Assembly: GCA_964603065.1 (NCBI GenBank)
Contig: CAZRTL010000004.1
Coordinates: 9,686-73,685, forward strand
Source of the DNA: Candidatus Woesearchaeota archaeon
GTDB lineage: Archaea; Nanobdellota; Nanobdellia; SCGC-AAA011-G17; PNOQ01
Reading direction: 5' to 3'
Length of the DNA: 64,000 nucleotides
In this document: positions 19,218 to 51,266 of the stretch, one piece after another
Layout: every line of letters starts with the position of its first letter
Numbering within the stretch: position 1 is the first letter of the stretch
Notes under the pieces: generated by a model
Seen by the model: the letters and a program-made list of their open reading frames with translations, nothing else
What the model was told of the DNA's origin: nothing
Databases searched by the model: none
Translations under genes and position numbers: made by a program

Positions 19218-20666
19218 ATGAAAAAACAGAGTTTAGAAGGAATTACGGTTAAAAAGTCTGAGAATTTTTCTGAGTGGTACACTCAAGTTATTCAGAAAGC
19301 AGAAATAGTTGATTTGAGACTTGGAGTTAAAGGATTTATTATAGTTAGACCGTGGGGAGCTTTAGCTATGGAAAAAATGTTTCGCCTTTATGAAGATGAA
19401 CTACAAAGAAAGGGCCATAGTCCTGTAATAATGCCTTCTGTTATTCCAGAATCAAATTTGAAGAAAGAATCTAGTCATGTTGAAGGTTTTACACCGGAGG
19501 TATTTTGGTTGGATGGAGACAAAGATGAAGAAAGACTTGCTTTGAGACCTACAAGTGAAACTGTTTTTACACCTATGTTTGACTATTGGGTTAGAAGTCA
19601 TAGAGATTTGCCTTTAAAATTATATCAGAAAGGTTCGGTTTTTAGATATGATACTAAAGCAACTAGGCCTTTGATTAGAGGTAGAGAGTTTAATTGGATA
19701 GAGGCACATGATGCTTTTTCAACTAGAGAAGAGGCAGAAGCTCAAGTTCAAGAAGATATTCAAATGACTGAGAATATTATGCATCAAAAATTTGGAGTTC
19801 CTTTTTTAGCTATGAAAAGACCGCAGTGGGATAAATTTGCGGGAGCAGAATATACTATTGGATCCGATGTTATTATGCCCGATGGAAAATTAATACAGCA
19901 GCCTTCTACTCATTACATGGGGCAGATATTTTCTAGAGCATTTGGATCTAAATTTATTGATAAACATGATAAGGAAGAGTATTTGTATACTACAGCTTAT
20001 GGTCCTGCAATTTCTAGAATTTTAGTTTCTATTATTTGCATGCATGGGGATGATAAAGGATTAGTTTTACCATATTGCATTTCGCCATTAAACGTGGTTG
20101 TAGTTCCCATATACAAGAAAAACAACAAGGATAAGGTTTTGAAGTATGTAAAAAGTATTGAAAAAAAACTAACTGGAGTTAAATATAAAGTTGATGATCG
20201 AGAAGAATACAGTCCTGGATGGAAATTTAATGAATGGGAATTAAAAGGTGTTCCGTTTAGGCTAGAAATTGGAGAGAAAGAGGCGAAGAGCAAAAAATTA
20301 TCTTTATTTATTAGAGACACAGGAGAAAAAATAAGTATTTCGTTAAGTGAATTGAAAAATCTGAATAAGATGGGTAAGGAATTTGATGAGAGATTATTGA
20401 AGAAAGCCGATAGTTTTATGAGGGGTAAAATTGTTGATTGTAAAACAAAAGTTGAAATTAAAAAAGCTATGTCAGATGGAAAAATAGCTCGTGTTCATTG
20501 GTGTTCTTTAGATGGAAATGGAGTTGAATGTGCCGAAGCAATAGAAAAAGATTTTTTAGCAGAAGTTAGGGGCACTATGGCTAACAAGAGAGAGAAATCG
20601 AAAGGCAATTGTGTAATGTGTAAGAAACCGGCTAGTGAAATGGTTTATGTTGCTAAAAGTTATTAA
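19218..20666 (+). CDS. proS: prolyl-tRNA synthetase, archaeal/eukaryotic type
   Basis: Class IIa motifs, FRYDTKATRPLIRGREF, C-terminal Zn-binding Cys cluster; 482 aa. Confidence 0.9.
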   Translation: MKKQSLEGITVKKSENFSEWYTQVIQKAEIVDLRLGVKGFIIVRPWGALAMEKMFRLYEDELQRKGHSPVIMPSVIPESNLKKESSHVEGFTPEVFWLDGDKDEERLALRPTSETVFTPMFDYWVRSHRDLPLKLYQKGSVFRYDTKATRPLIRGREFNWIEAHDAFSTREEAEAQVQEDIQMTENIMHQKFGVPFLAMKRPQWDKFAGAEYTIGSDVIMPDGKLIQQPSTHYMGQIFSRAFGSKFIDKHDKEEYLYTTAYGPAISRILVSIICMHGDDKGLVLPYCISPLNVVVVPIYKKNNKDKVLKYVKSIEKKLTGVKYKVDDREEYSPGWKFNEWELKGVPFRLEIGEKEAKSKKLSLFIRDTGEKISISLSELKNLNKMGKEFDERLLKKADSFMRGKIVDCKTKVEIKKAMSDGKIARVHWCSLDGNGVECAEAIEKDFLAEVRGTMANKREKSKGNCVMCKKPASEMVYVAKSY

Positions 20667-20758
20667 TAACCTATCTAATAAAAAAATTTATTTTAGAGTA
20701 AATCTTATATACTTCTTGACACTATTTAATTGTTAACTAAAAGAGAAGGCTATATTCA

Positions 20759-21121
20759 ATGAAAAAGTCATATCAAGTTTATATTTTAATTGGAATTGTT
20801 CTAATCTTATTTATAATGCTGTTAATCACACGACCCATTATATTTAATTCACCAAATAATGGGGAAACTTGGATAGATAAAGATGGAAATATATGTCAAG
20901 CATCTCAAAATGATGCCAAACTATCCCCCGAAATTCAAAAAAGTGGAGCGAGTGGAACATGTCAATGTAGTACAAATGATCAAGGAGAAGAAATATGTTG
21001 TAAATGTAGTGTGGGGGGTTGTCCAGGTTGTTCTCCTTCCGGATCTTCCTGTCAATGCGAAGGGGGAGATTCCATTATACCTTTAGATACAACTTGGTCA
21101 AATATAAAAAATCTATTCTGA
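20759..21121 (+). CDS. small secreted/membrane-anchored Cys-rich protein
   Basis: N-terminal TM or signal (ILIGIVLILFIMLLI), 14 Cys in a 60-aa C-terminal region; immediately upstream of the protease gene. Confidence 0.5.
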   Translation: MKKSYQVYILIGIVLILFIMLLITRPIIFNSPNNGETWIDKDGNICQASQNDAKLSPEIQKSGASGTCQCSTNDQGEEICCKCSVGGCPGCSPSGSSCQCEGGDSIIPLDTTWSNIKNLF

Positions 21122-21125
21122 CAAA

Positions 21126-22925
21126 ATGAAAAAAATAATTTTTCTAATATTGTTCCTTGTTATCATTTCAAGCTGCATGATACAGGAAAAATCTCCACCC
21201 TCATTTAAAAAAATTTCGGAAATAGCTTCTGAAGAATATTGGGATTCTGGCTTTACTTATGATTTTCCTTACTCTTTTGATTGGTCTTATAGACATAATG
21301 ACAATTATATAACCGATCGGGACGAACAACATTCTAATAATTGTTGGTCTTACTCTACAGTTGCCGCTGTAGAATCTCATATGTTACTTACGGGGAGGGG
21401 AGAGTATGATTTTTCAGAACTAGGACTTATGTGGGAATGCCAAGAAAGGGTAGACTGTTATCTAATAAACTATATGGGTTGCAACGGCGGATCTGCGCGC
21501 CATGCAATTGGGATACTGGGGACTATTGCATATGAGGAAAGCTCTAATTGTTACCCAAATTCAGATCTAGAAAACCCTGGTTATCCTCATAATAGTTGTT
21601 CTTGTCCAAATTGTGTAGATCAAACTGATGATAATTCCAGTAATGACCCCTATAGTTGTAGCGCATATAATTTAGGAATCGGCTCAGGAATGAAACAAAA
21701 CATAATTATAACACAGGAAATGGTAAAATATCATTTGCTTTCAAGGGGTCCACTCACAGCCTCTTTCGCTCCAGGACCATATGGTGGAATTCATAATATG
21801 TTAATTTATGGTTACAGTGGAAATAATTGGATTGTTAAAGATAGCGCCTATAATAATTATCAAGATCGTCCTATGTCGGATACATTGTATAATATAGCCT
21901 GGCCAGAGAGCGGCTATTCTGAATTTTGCCAAAATGATGATGGTGATGCTTTTTGTTGGTGGGGAATAAGTTCAATGGTTGAATATCATGATCCGTTTGA
22001 AATATTTGGCTTACCTAGTAGCTGTGATGGGAAAGGATGTAGCAGAAATGAACCAGATTTTAATGATTATGTTGCTTGTGAAATAGATTCATCGGAAAAT
22101 TCTAATGGTGGGTGTGCACCCGAATTTGCCTGTGGTGATGGAGTTTGTCAGGGTTGGGAGTCATGCAGAACTGGTCCGCCGAATGGAGGGTGTTTTAACG
22201 ACTGCTACATACCTGGATATGGGGGCAGAAGTGATGCCTGTTGCGGGAACGGAATCTTCGAAGAGGTGGAAGATTGTTCAAACTGTCCACAGGACGTCCC
22301 AGGAGGCTGTCCCGAATGTTCTGATAGAATAGATAACGATGGAGATGGATTTGTTGATTACCAAGGTTATGTGTTTTCAGAATCAGATCAAGATTGTGAA
22401 AATTTTGAAGATGATTCAGAATCTACGGAAGAATGTATTTGTGGAGACAATAACTTGTGTGGCGACGAAATATGTGAATTAACTCAAGAAAGTAATGTGA
22501 TATGCTATGATGCTCTAGCACAAGATAAAAAATGTTATGGTCCATTTAGTTCATCTGATGATAGCTATTGGGATAAAGGAGCATGGATGGATAATAAATG
22601 TTATCCCTTGGTTGGAACAACTACTAGGGATTGCGAAAATTGTGAGAATTGGATTCCTAATTGGGATGATTGTAAAACTTGTCCTGCAGTTGACGGTATA
22701 AATCCGGAAGATTATTTGGAAAGAGTGTATGTGACAGAAACAGAATGTAGGCAAAAAAGATATTCGGATAATCAATGGGTAAATATTCCATTTGAAACAT
22801 ATCCTAGACAGTTTCCAAAAACAAAAGACATTCATTTCGAAGAACAGTCACCTGGAGAATCACTGAAAAGTTCTATTTGGAATAAACTTAAGTGTGCGTT
22901 GCTAACTTGTTCAGAGGATAGCTAG
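21126..22925 (+). CDS. secreted papain-like (C1-family) cysteine protease with Cys-rich, Ca-binding-like C-terminal extension
   Basis: Signal/lipobox (IISSCM), catalytic Cys NCWSYSTVAAVES, His HNMLIYGY, Asn/Trp downstream, DNDGDGFVD thrombospondin/dockerin-like motif; 599 aa. Confidence 0.75.
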   Translation: MKKIIFLILFLVIISSCMIQEKSPPSFKKISEIASEEYWDSGFTYDFPYSFDWSYRHNDNYITDRDEQHSNNCWSYSTVAAVESHMLLTGRGEYDFSELGLMWECQERVDCYLINYMGCNGGSARHAIGILGTIAYEESSNCYPNSDLENPGYPHNSCSCPNCVDQTDDNSSNDPYSCSAYNLGIGSGMKQNIIITQEMVKYHLLSRGPLTASFAPGPYGGIHNMLIYGYSGNNWIVKDSAYNNYQDRPMSDTLYNIAWPESGYSEFCQNDDGDAFCWWGISSMVEYHDPFEIFGLPSSCDGKGCSRNEPDFNDYVACEIDSSENSNGGCAPEFACGDGVCQGWESCRTGPPNGGCFNDCYIPGYGGRSDACCGNGIFEEVEDCSNCPQDVPGGCPECSDRIDNDGDGFVDYQGYVFSESDQDCENFEDDSESTEECICGDNNLCGDEICELTQESNVICYDALAQDKKCYGPFSSSDDSYWDKGAWMDNKCYPLVGTTTRDCENCENWIPNWDDCKTCPAVDGINPEDYLERVYVTETECRQKRYSDNQWVNIPFETYPRQFPKTKDIHFEEQSPGESLKSSIWNKLKCALLTCSEDS

Positions 22926-23287
22926 TATCCTATCAATAAAGAAGCCCAATCTTTCTTAGTTTTTCTGTTTTTAATTAAATAATTATGTAGTCTTTTTGAA
23001 GGAGAAGAAGAAATTGAATTTTTTATTTCTGGAAAAGGAATGGCTGGAAAAATAACTTCTTTGTCAATCTTTTTAACTATTTTTTTTTGAGGTTTTCTGA
23101 ATTTAGAATCGTGAAAAACCAGAATTATATTTTTTTTATTCAGAACCTCTTCCACTCCAATATTATTTGGTTCGTTTAATTTTCTAATTTTATTTATTTC
23201 TTTATTTTTTAGAGGGGTAGGACTATGTAACCCTTTAATAAACCTTAATTTTAAGATCTGAATAAATTTATTAATTGCCAATACCAT
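22922..23287 (-). CDS. hypothetical protein
   Basis: 121-aa ORF between protease and transglutaminase-like genes; lysine-rich; coding status uncertain. Confidence 0.25.
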   Translation of the reverse strand: MVLAINKFIQILKLRFIKGLHSPTPLKNKEINKIRKLNEPNNIGVEEVLNKKNIILVFHDSKFRKPQKKIVKKIDKEVIFPAIPFPEIKNSISSSPSKRLHNYLIKNRKTKKDWASLLIGY

Positions 23288-25155
23288 GGTAAATTATTAA
23301 TTATGATTCTTTGGGAGTACTCTTGAGTATAAATATTTCCATATTCATCTTCATATTCAATTGAAATTTGTATTCTTTCTGAGTTGAGTCCTTTAGAGTT
23401 TGCAGTTAGTGTAAAAGATTTGGTTCCTTGTAATTCTGGAAATTCTACTGGTTGAAATCTATTAATTTTTAGAATAATATTTTTTAATGGGGTTGGGGAA
23501 TTGATTTCTATAGGGATTTTTATTTCTTCATTATAATTTATTTGATTAATATCTATTTGTGAAATTTCAATTTTAGGTTTTTCGATTATACTTAGAATAA
23601 CATTTCTTCTAACTTCTATTTCTGAATTTTTTAGTATTGCTTTTATTGGTTTGTTTAAGTTGGCAAAAGTAAATATGAATTCTTTCTCTGAATTCGCCGG
23701 CATATCAAAATTTTGACAATCTTCATTTAAACATAAACTTAAACCATTTATATTATTGTTAAAGGTTCTGACTAAACAATTCACTTCAGCCTCTTCGAAA
23801 GAATAAAAGTAAGTTTTTTTAGGGTTACAATTAAGAACTATTTGGTTAGAGTATGAATCCTCCTCATCAATTTCTAAAGAATCCACTATTTCTTGGGCTG
23901 CTTCTAGTGTTACTGATTCACCTCCTAAGAAAAAAGTTACTACTGTTGATTCTCTGGACCCATATAGATCAATAAATTCTATTGTTGTTGTGTAAGTATA
24001 TCCTTCTTGTGCTTCTTTCGGAAGTTTAAATATCCAGAATGTTTCTTTTTCTCCCCTTGGTTTCAATGCTATTAATTTTTGATTGTTTTCTATTTCTCCC
24101 GGAGCTTTTGTTAATATTATTGAATTCGATAAATAAGCATCATAAGGATTATTAACTTTTATTCTTACGGGAACATAGCTCCCTGGAGCAACATTATCTT
24201 TTAAGACAACTATGGAAGTTTCAAAGGGAGATATTATTTTGTTTCCCTGATTAGTTATTGTTGCGACGGTTGATATTTCTTGAGATGTATCTATGTTAAG
24301 CTGACCCGAAGATTCCCATTCGTATAGGATGGAAGTTTCTATGTCCTCCGATTTTTGGAGTGCTATGTGAGTTGGATCTATCCATCCTAATTGTCCATAA
24401 GTAACATCATAAGGCACCCATCCATATTCTGGGAAGTAGACTTCTGCCCATCCGTGATTTCCAAATTTGTCTCCTAAATTAGTGTAGGCCATTCCTGAAA
24501 TGAATCTAGCTGGAATTCCTATTGACCGAGTCATAGAAATAAATAAGGAACTTATTTCATCACATACCCCATATTCATTTTCTAAAACCCAAGAAGATTT
24601 TTGTGAAGCTTTTTCTGTAAGTGTAGTTAAATTGTATTCTATATTATCGTTTATCCACATTCCTATTTTGTGTACTGCCATATAAGCATTATCTTCAGAC
24701 TGAATAATCTCTGATGTTTTTGAGATTATTTCTGGAGTTATATCTATTTTTTCTTCTGATTGTAAATATTTATTATAATCTGAGGATAAATCTGAATAGG
24801 GAAAACTGATTTCTGGAACTTGATATAATTTGTTTGTTGTTTCAATCTGTTTGTTAAATCCAAATGAATAATCAGTTGACTGTTGCTCCCATATATATGT
24901 TATGAAGCCATCTGAAGTTATTTGGGAATTGGGAGAAGAATATTCTTCTGAGGATAAAATTTCTTGTATGTTATCATTTATTGGATTTAAAAAAACAGTG
25001 GCCATTAACTCATTTAAACTCCCAGATCCGACTAGGGAAACTTGAGAATCTAAAGAGAAATCAATTTGTAAAGTTTGGTAAATATTATAATTATCTTGAG
25101 CAAGAACTAAATTAAATGATAGGAATATTAATATTAACAAAAATATTTTTTTCAT
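23251..25155 (-). CDS. secreted transglutaminase-like (Cys-His-Asp) domain protein
   Basis: Signal peptide; core YGVCDEISSLFISMTRSIGIPARFISG...GNHGWAEVYFPEYGWVPYDVT (Cys, His, Asp triad); 634 aa. Confidence 0.7.
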   Translation of the reverse strand: MKKIFLLILIFLSFNLVLAQDNYNIYQTLQIDFSLDSQVSLVGSGSLNELMATVFLNPINDNIQEILSSEEYSSPNSQITSDGFITYIWEQQSTDYSFGFNKQIETTNKLYQVPEISFPYSDLSSDYNKYLQSEEKIDITPEIISKTSEIIQSEDNAYMAVHKIGMWINDNIEYNLTTLTEKASQKSSWVLENEYGVCDEISSLFISMTRSIGIPARFISGMAYTNLGDKFGNHGWAEVYFPEYGWVPYDVTYGQLGWIDPTHIALQKSEDIETSILYEWESSGQLNIDTSQEISTVATITNQGNKIISPFETSIVVLKDNVAPGSYVPVRIKVNNPYDAYLSNSIILTKAPGEIENNQKLIALKPRGEKETFWIFKLPKEAQEGYTYTTTIEFIDLYGSRESTVVTFFLGGESVTLEAAQEIVDSLEIDEEDSYSNQIVLNCNPKKTYFYSFEEAEVNCLVRTFNNNINGLSLCLNEDCQNFDMPANSEKEFIFTFANLNKPIKAILKNSEIEVRRNVILSIIEKPKIEISQIDINQINYNEEIKIPIEINSPTPLKNIILKINRFQPVEFPELQGTKSFTLTANSKGLNSERIQISIEYEDEYGNIYTQEYSQRIIINNLPWYWQLINLFRS

Positions 25156-26183
25156 TTTAAATATTCTTTGAACTTTTTTATGAATTCCTCAAATTGATTT
25201 ATATTTATTGAAGCTCCACAGGCATTTTCGTGTCCCCCACCGAATCCATCTAGTTCTTCGAGGGCTTTTGTTAAGGGGTCTCGGATGTTTATACCCTGAC
25301 TTCTTAGGCTCATCATGATTCTATCTTCTTTTTTTCTAACACTTATTATTATTTTCGTAGGATGTTTATAAATTAAATAGTTTGAAATTGTACTTATATG
25401 GGAATTCTTGGATTTTGGAAGTTCTATTATGAATAACTTATCTTTCGAGGGTTTTTGTTTCTCAACATACTTCATCATTTTATCGTAATCAGATAACAAA
25501 ACTCCTACTTCTCTAAGGATAAATTTTGATCTTGATGTTTTTCCTTCAATTAATTCATAAGGATCATCTATTTTTAGAAGTAAGTTTGCTATTCTATGTA
25601 CTTTTGATGTGGACGTTTTTAATGAAAGGGAAAATATATTAATTATTTCTCCTAGCTTTGAATCAAAAATCGCCTCAGGGGGAGTTTTTAATTTACTTGG
25701 CAGGATATCTGGATATTTTTTTGAGAATTCTTTTGCAAATTCTGGCAGATACCAATCTGCTATGCTTCCCAAGGTTCCTAAAAACAGTTCTTTTTCTTCT
25801 GTTATTTTGTACGCCATGTATGTAGTAGGTACTGTTTTATTTGATTTTAACATAGGATTAAAATATTTCACATTCTTTCTTTTTATTGGACTGTGGTGAT
25901 CTAGCCATATAATAGGAGCATCACATCTATCTATAAACTCTTGAGAAACTATTGGCACATCTAGAATGAAAATTACATCAGGATTATATTCCTCTACTTT
26001 ATGGTGCAAATTTACATCTAGGACAGAAGTTGTTTTTAGAACTGCGCCTTTTCCTTTGTCTATATATTTTTTTAGTATTAGGTATGAGCAGAGTCCATCC
26101 GGATCATCATCAAAGAAAAATAGAGGATTCTTTGCTTCTTTTAGATATTTTCTAAATTCTTTGATTTGTGTTTGAGTTAACAT
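25152..26183 (-). CDS. DHH/DHHA1-family phosphoesterase (NrnA/RecJ-like)
   Basis: DDDPDG, ILDVP, WLDHH motifs and DHHA1 GGGHENACGASI; 343 aa. Confidence 0.7.
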   Translation of the reverse strand: MLTQTQIKEFRKYLKEAKNPLFFFDDDPDGLCSYLILKKYIDKGKGAVLKTTSVLDVNLHHKVEEYNPDVIFILDVPIVSQEFIDRCDAPIIWLDHHSPIKRKNVKYFNPMLKSNKTVPTTYMAYKITEEKELFLGTLGSIADWYLPEFAKEFSKKYPDILPSKLKTPPEAIFDSKLGEIINIFSLSLKTSTSKVHRIANLLLKIDDPYELIEGKTSRSKFILREVGVLLSDYDKMMKYVEKQKPSKDKLFIIELPKSKNSHISTISNYLIYKHPTKIIISVRKKEDRIMMSLRSQGINIRDPLTKALEELDGFGGGHENACGASININQFEEFIKKFKEYLK

Positions 26184-34493: not shown

Positions 34494-35516
34494 TTATTTC
34501 CAAAACATAAGATTGGAAATAACTCTTTCTAAAAAGTTTTTAAACTTTGTGTTGGTTGGTTCTCTTACAAAATCTCCTGTTAGATCTTCTAAAGAATCAC
34601 TATTATATTCTACTCCGGCAGCAGTTGCTTCTTGCATAAGTGCTTTTCCTGCAAAAATTCCAAAATTGTTTGTCATTACAGAGTCTGATGCTGCTTCATA
34701 ATCTGGAGCGGTTCTTGTTTCATGCATATATTCTACTGGGATTGCTCTTTCCTCATAGTACTCTCGAACATTCCTTCTTTCATAGAATAAATTTATATGA
34801 GACCCACCGGTTTTTCTCGCAATCGTTTTCCACTGGTTCATTCCCTCTTGGTTCATTCCAGATCCTGATGCTGTATAGATTCTAATGTTTTTATCTTGTG
34901 CATCATCTATAGCATCTTTCCAATTATACTTATGATAATTTGGTTCTGGCTCATTCCCATAATAATTTTGATTTGGATAATTTCTTGCTGGAGCATCTCC
35001 AACTAAAATTATTATTTTATGAGCTGAACTTCTCCAGTTCATATGATTAATTGCTTCATCTAGGCCAGCTTCAACAGCTTCTTCATAATCTCCTCCACCA
35101 TAAGATTCGATACTTTTAATAAATTTAACCGCATCTTTTGTGTTTCTTGTTAGAGGTGTTTCTCTAGTTAGATAGCTGTGTTCATATGGTTCGTAATCTC
35201 TATAGGTGACTACTCCCACTCTTACGTCAGGTCTAGGGTAACCAGAGTTTACTTTTCCTACTATGTTTCTTAATTCTTCTTTTACTGTTCTTATTTCGTC
35301 ATGCATAGATCCTGTTGAATCTATTACAAAAACTATATCTAATTGTATTTGTTCCGATGGAACATAGTTTGGCCCCACTTCTGAACAAGATATTTCAGTT
35401 GTGGATTGCATAAATTCACATGGCAGGTCGTAATCTCTTTGTCTCTCATCGTATGCCAGTGTGAATGTTGAAAGTAATATCAATCCAACGAAAATCATGC
35501 TTAATATTTTTTTCAT
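34494..35516 (-). CDS. secreted von Willebrand factor A (vWA) domain protein
   Basis: Signal peptide; MIDAS DxSxS (DIVFVIDSTGSM); 340 aa. Confidence 0.75.
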   Translation of the reverse strand: MKKILSMIFVGLILLSTFTLAYDERQRDYDLPCEFMQSTTEISCSEVGPNYVPSEQIQLDIVFVIDSTGSMHDEIRTVKEELRNIVGKVNSGYPRPDVRVGVVTYRDYEPYEHSYLTRETPLTRNTKDAVKFIKSIESYGGGDYEEAVEAGLDEAINHMNWRSSAHKIIILVGDAPARNYPNQNYYGNEPEPNYHKYNWKDAIDDAQDKNIRIYTASGSGMNQEGMNQWKTIARKTGGSHINLFYERRNVREYYEERAIPVEYMHETRTAPDYEAASDSVMTNNFGIFAGKALMQEATAAGVEYNSDSLEDLTGDFVREPTNTKFKNFLERVISNLMFWK

Positions 35517-40438: not shown

Positions 40439-40560
40439 GGACTGGTAGCTCAGCTTGGATAGAGCACTAAAGAAGTTTTGCGCGAGTATGCTTCTGTGTA
40501 GGCCTTCTAAACCAAGTTGAAGAAAGCTAGGGGTCGAGGGTTCAAATCCCTTCCAGTCCG
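40439..40560 (+). tRNA. tRNA-like gene interrupted by a ~48-nt insertion (intron-containing tRNA or pseudo-tRNA); anticodon unresolved
   Basis: Perfect 7-bp acceptor stem GGACTGG/CCAGTCC; canonical D-arm TAGCTCAGCTTGGATAGAGCA; T-arm GAGGG-TTCAAAT-CCCTT; ~48 extra nt between them. No single-intron model gives a canonical anticodon loop. It starts 2 nt after the stop codon of the LAGLIDADG gene. Confidence 0.5.
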
Positions 40561-50295: not shown

Positions 50296-50814
50296 TTATT
50301 CAATTAAATATACATATAAAGTTTCGAATGGAATTTTTTCTTTGTCTAATTCTTTAAATTTGTAGTTTAATTTTTTTAGATTGTTATCTACTTCAGGGGT
50401 TAGAGACGAAAAAACTATTAGAATTTTTCCTTTTTCACTTAAATGAGGTTTAGCCTGTTCTAAAAATTTAACTAGAATTTCATTACCTTTTTTTCCTCCT
50501 GTGGTAGATAATTGAGAATCTTTTGGTTCTCGAGGTTCTTCAGGTAGATAAGGAGGATTAAATATAATGAGATCAAATTTTTCTTTTATATTTTCAAATA
50601 ATTTAGATTGTATTGCTTCTATTCCTAATTTTTTTACATGCTCAACACATTTTGGATTTATGTCTGCGGCCAAAACTTCAGCGCCTAGCGCATGTGCTTC
50701 CAGGGCTTGAATTCCAGAGCCAGTACCCATATCTAAAACTTTCATTTTACTTTTGATAATATTTTTTAATTGCTTTTTTAGAAGAAAGGAATCTTCGGCT
50801 GGTTCGTAAATCAT
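50296..50814 (-). CDS. HemK/Mtq2-family N5-glutamine (release factor) methyltransferase-like
   Basis: SAM motif LDMGTGSGI, catalytic NPPY (IIFNPPYLP); 172 aa. Confidence 0.6.
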   Translation of the reverse strand: MIYEPAEDSFLLKKQLKNIIKSKMKVLDMGTGSGIQALEAHALGAEVLAADINPKCVEHVKKLGIEAIQSKLFENIKEKFDLIIFNPPYLPEEPREPKDSQLSTTGGKKGNEILVKFLEQAKPHLSEKGKILIVFSSLTPEVDNNLKKLNYKFKELDKEKIPFETLYVYLIE

Positions 50815-51266
50815 TTTAAAGCTTTGAAATACTCTTCAACTCTTTCCAGAATATTACTTAGATAGAAATTTTTTATTCTTTTCTCAAAAATTTCATGTAG
50901 TTCTTCAAACTCAGTTATTCTGTAATCTGTTTTGACATTTTCAATTAAATGTAGGTCTTTTAATCTCTTTAATTGTCTCCTTACATTAGAGGAGGCAACT
51001 CCTTTCAAAGGGAGATTATATTTTTTTCTATTGGCTATTACTTTATCCCTAACTTCTTCAGAATTCATTAATATTTTATCTTTTTTATTAATCATTAAAA
51101 CTTGAAAAACATCTACAATGATATCCCTAGAATCTCCCGGTTGTAGTAATCCAACTGATAAACATAATTTTCTTGTTAAATCTCTTTTAGAAGCCGTATA
51201 AGGTTTTTCATATCTCCTCAAGGTTATTTCGGATAAAGGTATATCTCTTGAAATTGTTTTAGGCAT
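50811..51266 (-). CDS. hypothetical wHTH protein
   Basis: 151 aa; 4-bp overlap with the methyltransferase gene. Confidence 0.35.
   Translation of the reverse strand: MPKTISRDIPLSEITLRRYEKPYTASKRDLTRKLCLSVGLLQPGDSRDIIVDVFQVLMINKKDKILMNSEEVRDKVIANRKKYNLPLKGVASSNVRRQLKRLKDLHLIENVKTDYRITEFEELHEIFEKRIKNFYLSNILERVEEYFKALK

Follow-up and report, generated by a model that had tools for sequence, protein, structure and literature searches.

A predicted papain-family protease and its small cognate partner form an inserted cassette beside a transglutaminase-like gene in a Woesearchaeota genome

The window considered here is a 64,000-nucleotide (nt) stretch of a Candidatus Woesearchaeota genome. Its interval 20759-25155 encodes a small Cys-containing protein, a papain-like protease and, on the opposite strand, a transglutaminase-like (TGase-like) protein. 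All three have hydrophobic signal-like N-termini, and an earlier note on this DNA had grouped them into one secreted module. The three open reading frames (ORFs) are present exactly where it placed them and with the lengths that it gave; the grouping does not hold. Very probably, the interval consists of two unrelated units: a cassette on the forward strand (20759-22925), comprising the small protein and a protease of the C1A type, and a gene string on the reverse strand (22922-26183), which includes the TGase-like gene. The real module is the pair made up of the protease and the small upstream protein, its cognate partner. The features of the cassette are the following.

20759-21121, forward strand: small exported or signal-anchored acidic protein, 120 amino acids (aa); from the ORF list and homologues
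21126-22925, forward strand: C1A papain-type protease, 599 aa; from the ORF list, the family profile and a fold search
21126-21176, forward strand: predicted signal peptide of the protease with lipobox, MKKIIFLILFLVIISS-C17; from the sequence, with an ISSC/LISSC motif kept in homologues P0005-P0007
21264-21995, forward strand: C1A papain-fold catalytic domain, about residues 47-290; from the profile against the PDB, AlphaFold2 and Foldseek
21342-21344 (Cys73), 21792-21794 (His223) and 21840-21842 (Asp239), forward strand: catalytic residues of the protease, together with Gln68; from the profile alignment
21996-22922, forward strand: Cys-rich C-terminal extension, residues 291-599; from invariant alignment columns

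Related cassettes called type A here lie beside a DHHA1 paralogue, and those called type B lie between KH/PNO1 and TopoVI-B, at two other conserved loci.

Alone, the 599-aa protein does not match PF00112 in Pfam, even at E ≤ 0.1, and a single-sequence search of the PDB returns only weak matches to C1 enzymes (E about 3e-4). Membership in family C1 therefore rests on the family profile, the Pfam matches of the homologues and the fold search. Six clusters of homologues are found among 5.8 billion proteins, all with PF00112, and the homologues P0002, P0005 and P0006 reach 34-55 bits for this family against a cutoff of 20.7. A profile built from seven family sequences matches 149 C1A chains in the PDB (best E=7e-13), covers nearly the full mature domain and sets the Q...CW, H and VK[N/D]S motifs in register with those chains. 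AlphaFold2 modelling of residues 40-295 with a 35-sequence alignment gives a predicted local distance difference test (pLDDT) score of 68.5 and a predicted template modelling (pTM) score of 0.72. Compared with the PDB in Foldseek, this model has 198 matches at E ≤ 1e-3, led by cathepsins K, S and L (probability 1.00, TM 0.5-0.6). A model of the full 599 aa with the seven-sequence alignment (pLDDT 33, pTM 0.24) was set aside. By predicted fold and aligned catalytic residues the protein is a divergent C1A (papain-family) protease, in line with the papain-fold C1 identity first proposed.

Cys73-Trp74 and His223 are invariant across the family and are aligned with the papain-type CW and H. The earlier claim of a Cys, a His and an Asn is correct for the first two; the equivalent of papain Asn175 is Asp239 (VKDS versus VKNS), and Trp177 is replaced by Ala (DSA versus NSW). 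Among 35 aligned sequences the third catalytic column holds Asn in 26 and Asp in six, and these six all belong to the subfamily, to which a DS[AGS]/DT[S] signature is limited (6/35). Asp is the usual third catalytic residue in other families of clan CA, and for this reason protease activity appears plausible with Asp239. The oxyanion-hole Gln is invariant in the seven-sequence alignment, and in the window protein Gln68 stands five, not six, residues before Cys73 (DEQHSNNCW). With the papain family at large (MEROPS C1A, PF00112; cathepsins L, K and S, papain, ficin) the protease shares the two-lobe fold, the Gln-Cys(Trp)-His arrangement and, close to where the domain ends, a CGI-like strand, “CWWGI”. 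It differs in the two substitutions at Asn175 and Trp177, in a shortened segment before the His, in the lack of an I29-type prodomain and of a Cys22-type Cys, in having its own lipobox signal and a 300-aa Cys-rich tail, and in staying below the Pfam threshold.

The N-terminus, MKKIIFLILFLVIISSC, matches the lipobox pattern [LVI][ASTVI][GAS]C through I-S-S-C17, which agrees with the lipoprotein-like signal recognized before, and the Pfam model LPAM_1 remains sub-threshold (E=0.053, 14.4 bits against a cutoff of 20). The protease is probably Sec-exported and lipid-anchored at Cys17. A lipobox is also present in the S8 protease of a relative (locus L014, below), and the type-A protease homologues do not have the Cys. 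No I29 or other prodomain is matched on the protease in Pfam, and the stretch from Cys17 to the mature-type FDW start spans only about 29 residues (fewer than 15, almost none, in type-A homologues). As far as can be read from the sequence, the protease is without a prodomain.

The protease contains 42 Cys, and its Cys-rich extension carries the DxDxDG motif that had been reported. DNDGDG (residues 403-408, 22332-22349) lies within an invariant loop, ECSDRIDNDGDG (CPECSDRIDNDGDGxxDYxGY). D403-N-D-G-D-G408 and D411 are invariant in 7/7 protease sequences and fit a DxDxDG motif with a downstream acidic ligand. The extension closes with a terminal S-I-W-N-K-L-K-C-A-L-L-x-C tail. No family in Pfam, NCBIfam or the PDB covers the Cys-rich tail, and the tail alone has no PDB match even at E ≤ 10; a zinc-finger match in Pfam (19.6 bits against a cutoff of 27) is sub-threshold and was disregarded. 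Positions 368-450 of the profile recur in giant surface proteins with DUF11, PKD or Ig domains, and also in many bacterial metagenome-assembled genomes (MAGs); the giant proteins contain 5-22 copies of this module and the window protease a single one. The DNDGDG loop probably binds Ca2+, and the tail probably mediates surface attachment. A marine contig (L047, 1305-2162) encodes a 285-aa protein in which, behind an unrelated N-terminus, only the Cys-rich tail of the protease family and its post-catalytic “DGDDFCFWGI” segment are present; this protein could be what is left of a family member, or a derivative produced by domain shuffling.

This protease subfamily is rare. A HMMER scan of 1.84 billion cluster representatives yields about six members, below which the score falls from 318 to 159 bits, and the next matches are tail repeats or C1 domains of a generic kind; about 1166 matches have E ≤ 1e-10. 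Cluster records of the nearest C1 matches outside the family carry no taxonomy and so point to no donor lineage. In a set of 185,579 species-representative genomes, only two Woesearchaeota MAGs encode the protease, one of them with two paralogues. A scan of JGI metagenomes gives four loci and adds no lineage except the tail-only relative L047, and no relatives of the protease were found on viral contigs. C1A peptidases are reported across all major archaeal lineages, including DPANN, with a patchy, low-copy distribution (PMC10380794). Rarity therefore holds for this subfamily and not for the fold, and the earlier statement that such enzymes are rare in archaea is overstated for C1A peptidases at large and for TGase-like proteins.

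The small protein was correctly described as 120 aa long with a signal segment. It is acidic, contains 10 Cys rather than the 14 initially counted, and ends in the C-terminal motif TTWSNIKNLF. Its nine homologue clusters are all small members of one family, and no Pfam domain is recorded for any of them. Wherever the context is readable, each homologue sits at most two genes upstream of a protease gene. Nine protease lineages were inspected for an upstream small ORF. In 6/9 (the window, L001, L002-5, L006-8, L010/L017 and L012-13) the protease gene is preceded, at a distance of 1-7 nt, by a small signal/anchor ORF, and these ORFs share the C-terminal consensus [ST]W[ST][DN][IL]KxL[WYF](G). In a seventh lineage, L009, the motif-bearing small ORF is found one gene further upstream. 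A search of the window and of loci L001-L016 finds the motif nowhere but at the C-termini of these small ORFs. The idea of a cognate partner, raised in the earlier note, is thus upheld by the pairing. In the window only 4 nt lie between the small-ORF stop and the protease ATG, and the two proteins are therefore probably co-translated.

The number of Cys varies from partner to partner, with 7 in type A, 10 in the window and 2 in type B, one per tandem unit. The type-B small proteins consist of two tandem units, EPRPC-x(3-6)-[ST]TW[SG]D[VIL]KxL[YW], joined by S-G/P. The conserved feature of the small proteins is therefore the C-terminal motif, not Cys-richness. No Pfam or NCBIfam family matches the small protein at E ≤ 0.1 or at E ≤ 1, and a nine-sequence profile finds nothing in the PDB below E=0.68. 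The possibility that the small protein derives from the protease, as its propeptide or another split-off part, was rejected: profile-profile comparison matched signal peptides only. Type-A cassettes contain an extra signal-peptide protein of 201-214 aa (L001 7110-7745, L002 45-689, L009 591-1196, L010 5360-6004), which overlaps the next cassette gene by 4 nt and has no significant Pfam match. No homologue of this extra protein is present in the window; the best tblastn match (E=0.003, 50814-50993), to an ORF of 151 aa that looks cytoplasmic, was discarded.

The remaining features of the locus belong to the reverse-strand string and to the borders of the cassette.

22922-23287, reverse strand: orf121, basic lysine-rich protein, 121 aa; conserved in relatives and missed in the earlier note
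23251-25155, reverse strand: transglutaminase-like exported protein, 634 aa; from Pfam Transglut_core
25152-26183, reverse strand: DHH/DHHA1 protein, 343 aa; from Pfam
20664-20682, no strand assigned: left direct-repeat copy, TAATAACCTATCTAATAAA, which begins with the stop codon of the prolyl-tRNA synthetase (ProRS) gene
22923-22940, no strand assigned: right direct-repeat copy, TAGTATCCTATCAATAAA, which opens with the stop codon of the protease gene and overlaps orf121 at its 3' end
20683-20758, forward strand: intergenic cassette leader; from a reading of the sequence only

The Pfam family Transglut_core (PF01841) matches residues 147-250 of the TGase-like protein (24406-24717) at E=3.7e-25, with 88.7 bits against a cutoff of 23. 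The family profile matches PDB entry 3ISR (E=4e-13) with Cys-His-Asp aligned. The homologues number at least 1284, and conservation was read from the best 120, where Cys198/His234/Asp250 occur in 120/120; all 40 homologues tested match PF01841. The description of a 634-aa exported Cys-His-Asp protein was therefore accurate. These best 120 homologues are all full-length (about 575-658 aa), come mostly from Woesearchaeota/Nanoarchaeota and commonly have signal peptides. The group displays four invariant Cys, a conserved C-terminal tail, PWYWQLINLFRS, and a C-terminal region of about 380 aa without a Pfam match. The protein thus has the aligned Cys-His-Asp in common with PF01841 and 3ISR, and belongs to its own exported Woesearchaeota/Nanoarchaeota orthologue group of about 635 aa. 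Protease, cross-linking and deamidase are candidate activities. TGase-like proteins have been described in archaea since 1999 (Makarova et al., PMC2144420, cited in PMC10318531).

The stop of the DHH/DHHA1 gene overlaps the start of the TGase-like gene by 4 nt (4-7 nt across loci), which suggests translational coupling; the DHH protein has no signal-like N-terminus. The same overlap occurs in the relatives L014 (3973-6905), L015 and, at 40% identity, L016 (3967-6929), and ProRS is convergent downstream; across Woesearchaeota/Nanoarchaeota a DHH/DHHA1 gene always precedes the TGase-like gene. On the other side, orf121 shares 37 nt with the 3' end of the TGase-like gene and 4 nt with the protease gene at its stop. 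Its length and the 37-nt overlap recur in two relatives; it is 70% identical to the L014 copy and has no significant Pfam match. DHH, the TGase-like gene and orf121 (22922-26183, reverse strand) form a lineage-core gene string that merely abuts the cassette. Linkage between TGase-like and protease genes is found only in the window and in one close relative, and the synteny of the TGase-like gene with DHH is kept where the protease is missing, so that the adjacency is accidental. With its at least 1284 homologues, the TGase-like gene is one of the widespread housekeeping genes that the earlier note had itself named as speaking against its proposal.

The cassette is an insertion of about 2.25 kb relative to the close relative L014, and it is flanked by a direct repeat. 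The DNA of the window is homologous to that of L014 up to 20681 and again from 22935 onwards. L15e, DHH, TGase, orf121, ProRS and a DNA-alkylation repair gene are 67-89% identical at the protein level between L014 and the window. L014 has no C1 cassette at this locus, and there the stops of ProRS and orf121 overlap. The repeat is about 19 nt long and imperfect (16/19 positions match, with one gap), and 29/2000 random 50-nt pairs score equally. The C-terminal codons of orf121 lie in the right copy, of which the left one is a decayed duplicate, and the pair resembles a target duplication that arose when the cassette was inserted. In the P0005 contig a cassette is found between L15e and DHH, across the block from its position in the window, and the protease there is 38% identical to that of the window, against 73% for the TGase. 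The L15e-DHH slot of L014 (1836-3941) is occupied by a 701-aa S8 subtilase with a lipobox and a C-terminal Cys module (NNCQECGCPTG...) similar to the one in type-B C1 proteases. Either side of the DHH-TGase block seems to be a variable position in which secreted lipoprotein proteases are found. The cassette is thus accessory, evolutionarily mobile and fast-diverging, and lies at different loci in related genomes.

The window has a GC content of about 31% and derives from an AT-rich, low-GC Woesearchaeota-type genome, with archaeal genes that include Nre, an archaeal-type ProRS and L15e. Metagenome contigs hold identical or near-identical copies of its proteins, and the nearest named relatives are “Candidatus Woesearchaeota archaeon” MAGs. 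Saanich Inlet, the Arabian Sea and further oxygen-minimum zones are where the contigs come from. The ORFs are real and not chance products, since all have homologues and ORFs of 599 and 634 codons are unexpected in DNA of this composition. In the JGI gene calls the small protein begins at Met20 (20816; 101 aa) and the protease at Met18 (21177; 582 aa). NCBI/ENA gives both cassette genes their long forms (120 and 599 aa), and these are also favoured by the homologues, whose MKK-hydrophobic N-termini are conserved. The internal starts would strip both signal peptides, so that database annotations as “non-secreted” would be artefacts. The leader (20683-20758), a putative promoter, contains A/T-rich TATA-like stretches, TTTATTTT and CTTATATAC; about 14 nt ahead of the ATG it has the purine-rich sequence GAGAAGG. 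The window holds no second copy of the protease, small-protein or TGase gene. An Rfam scan of the window finds tRNAs only, with no match inside 20759-25155; one tRNA match of 122 nt (40439-40560, forward strand), unreported by ARAGORN, is probably an intron-containing archaeal tRNA.

A mechanism can be proposed for the pair, in which the small protein would bind the protease through its C-terminal [ST]W[ST][DN][IL]KxL[WYF] tail. It would stand in, in trans, for the missing prodomain and keep the protease latent, or rightly placed, at the cell surface until release. The Cys-rich DNDGDG tail would provide a Ca2+-stabilized hold on a surface, and the freed protease would break down extracellular or host-surface proteins. 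By analogy with known protease-partner pairs, such a role of the partner as a trans-regulator is a tentative reading, somewhat less probable than an even chance. The explanation as a whole, which blends the anatomy of the locus with this step, is about evenly poised. The partner may be a latency factor, an inhibitor, an anchor or a substrate.

Several observations weigh against this proposal. Peptidase activity is not guaranteed, given that the protein is sub-threshold for Pfam C1 and its Gln is shifted by one residue. The pairing has gaps: in the P0005 lineage a 69-aa ORF, whose sequence could not be read and which was not recovered by profile search, precedes the protease, and no small ORF is called upstream of the P0007 paralogue. 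The small protein has no similarity to the cysteine-protease inhibitor families I29 propeptide, cystatin, chagasin, staphostatin and thyropin. Part of the conservation of the C-terminus may act at the nucleotide level, as a ribosome-binding site of the protease gene. In most small ORFs the last Trp-Gly codons (TGGGG[A/T]) are Shine-Dalgarno-like and stand 5-10 nt before the protease ATG (L001 7985-8003, L006 4433-4451, L012 6217-6235); the end of the window small ORF (…AATCTATTCTGA) is without the TGGGG element. The tandem duplication of the motif in type B fits a multi-core precursor as well. Finally, similar tails on unrelated exported proteins suggest that the motif may be a generic surface tail and not a protease-docking element.

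These last two points lead to rival explanations. The small ORF could be a substrate, namely a secreted precursor that the protease trims to a peptide signal, a toxin or an archaeocin-like Cys-rich peptide, which we regard as unlikely. The tandem EPRPC units resemble multi-core precursors, and K-x-L-[WY]/[GS] places a Leu at P2, the classical preference of the S2 site in the papain family (C1A). The type-A small proteins have, in addition, an AxA-type signal cleavage site (VQA), with which the mature part would be a free peptide of about 55 aa and 7 Cys. Against this, neither a modifying enzyme nor an export ABC transporter, as expected for a RiPP-type precursor system, is conserved beside the cassette, whose neighbours are different housekeeping genes in each context, and the window protein stops exactly at ...KNLF, leaving nothing to cleave off. 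Precursors usually vary in their cores and conserve their recognition parts, whereas the type-A mature peptide is conserved almost throughout. A spacing of 4-19 residues between the last Cys and the motif speaks against a defined macrocycle, and an AgrD-like thiolactone or macrocycle was set aside for this spacing and for the lack of any residue past the motif in the window protein. A wider version of the substrate idea, in which the small ORFs are a new family of trans-encoded partners found in this archaeal C1 subfamily alone and, at the extreme, multi-unit peptide precursors with a signalling or surface-active role for a dedicated prodomain-less protease, has little probability. Such a peptide-maturation cassette might be tied to a lineage-wide aromatic C-terminal tail that marks exported proteins.

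That tail is central to another alternative, which we consider improbable: the small protein would be a co-expressed surface or anchor protein, its motif a lineage-wide retention or sorting tail, and the pairing only co-localization. Short aromatic or amphipathic tails similar to that of the small protein (...WSNIKNLF; 21092-21121, forward strand) end the TGase-like protein (...PWYWQLINLFRS; WQLINLFRS, 23251-23300, reverse strand), a VWA protein (34494-35516, reverse strand; ...ERVISNLMFWK) and the S8 protease of L014 (3890-3941; ...FELISNLFSK), and a tail of the form ...W-x-x-[LF]-K-C-x-[LF] closes the long C1 proteases as well. The pattern, set post hoc, is present in 11/22 signal-peptide ORFs versus 3/151 others; this enrichment is circular, since the pattern was defined after the sequences had been viewed, and most of the matches are small proteins and TGases. 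Register and residues also differ, K standing at +4 after the W in the small proteins but at +3 in the TGases, and a generic tail leaves unexplained why the small ORF moves with the protease gene to different sites. Least probable by far is the three-protein version, in which the small protein, the protease and the TGase-like protein form one secreted module for host-surface remodelling. All three have export signals and are adjacent in the window, one close relative also has the cassette less than 1 kb from the same block, and the S8 lipobox protease beside the block in another relative indicates that secreted proteases tend to adjoin it. However, the TGase-like gene is coupled to DHH and keeps its own synteny in genomes (40-67% identity) that have no C1 cassette close to it. 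Type-A and type-B cassettes are far from any TGase gene. The window cassette is convergent to the TGase string and inserted relative to L014, and in breadth of occurrence the TGase family exceeds the protease family about 200-fold. The two-unit reading, with the small protein as the partner of the protease, is therefore preferred over this version.

Comparisons with known systems place the pair within familiar kinds. Cwp84 of Clostridioides difficile (4CI7/4D59) is, like the window protease, an exported multidomain C1A enzyme of a prokaryote, tethered to the surface by non-catalytic C-terminal domains, and direct sequence matches of the window protease to it are weak (E=0.009-0.01). Besides maturing the surface-layer precursor, Cwp84 reportedly combines CWB2 wall-binding repeats with a prodomain and a lectin-like domain. 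None of these three parts is found in the window protease. In the gene geometry of the cassette, the closest parallel is offered by the potempins of Tannerella forsythia. These are encoded by ORFs of 98-132 aa, with export signals or as lipoproteins, directly upstream of secreted KLIKK peptidases, of which they are specific inhibitors (PMC9890683). Gene geometry and size range are alike in the two systems. The potempin/KLIKK operons differ in being bacterial, associated with the outer membrane and built on other peptidase families, and no sequence similarity to the cassette is detected. In the staphostatin/staphopain and Spi/SpeB systems a clan CA protease likewise lies beside a dedicated small inhibitor, and Spi resembles the propeptide of its protease. 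These inhibitors are encoded downstream and are cytoplasmic, and the proteases belong to C47 and C10 and have prodomains. Staphostatin and Spi show no similarity to the window small protein, and the comparison is a lead only.

The protease and its partner are new within a known family, and nothing at the locus falls outside known kinds. The TGase-like gene is no exotic acquisition but a lineage-core exported protein whose gene is coupled to that of a DHH phosphoesterase, which matters for annotation. As an accessory, fast-diverging and locus-shifting element, the cassette behaves in the way typical of genes for biotic interactions. Feeding the cell and attacking a host surface would both be compatible with the sequence of the protease. 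Almost no surface or secreted enzymes of DPANN archaea have been experimentally characterized, and host interaction and nutrient scavenging are open questions in these organisms. The cassette provides a compact test case, in which the partner could define a new family of protease regulators or a new peptide precursor.

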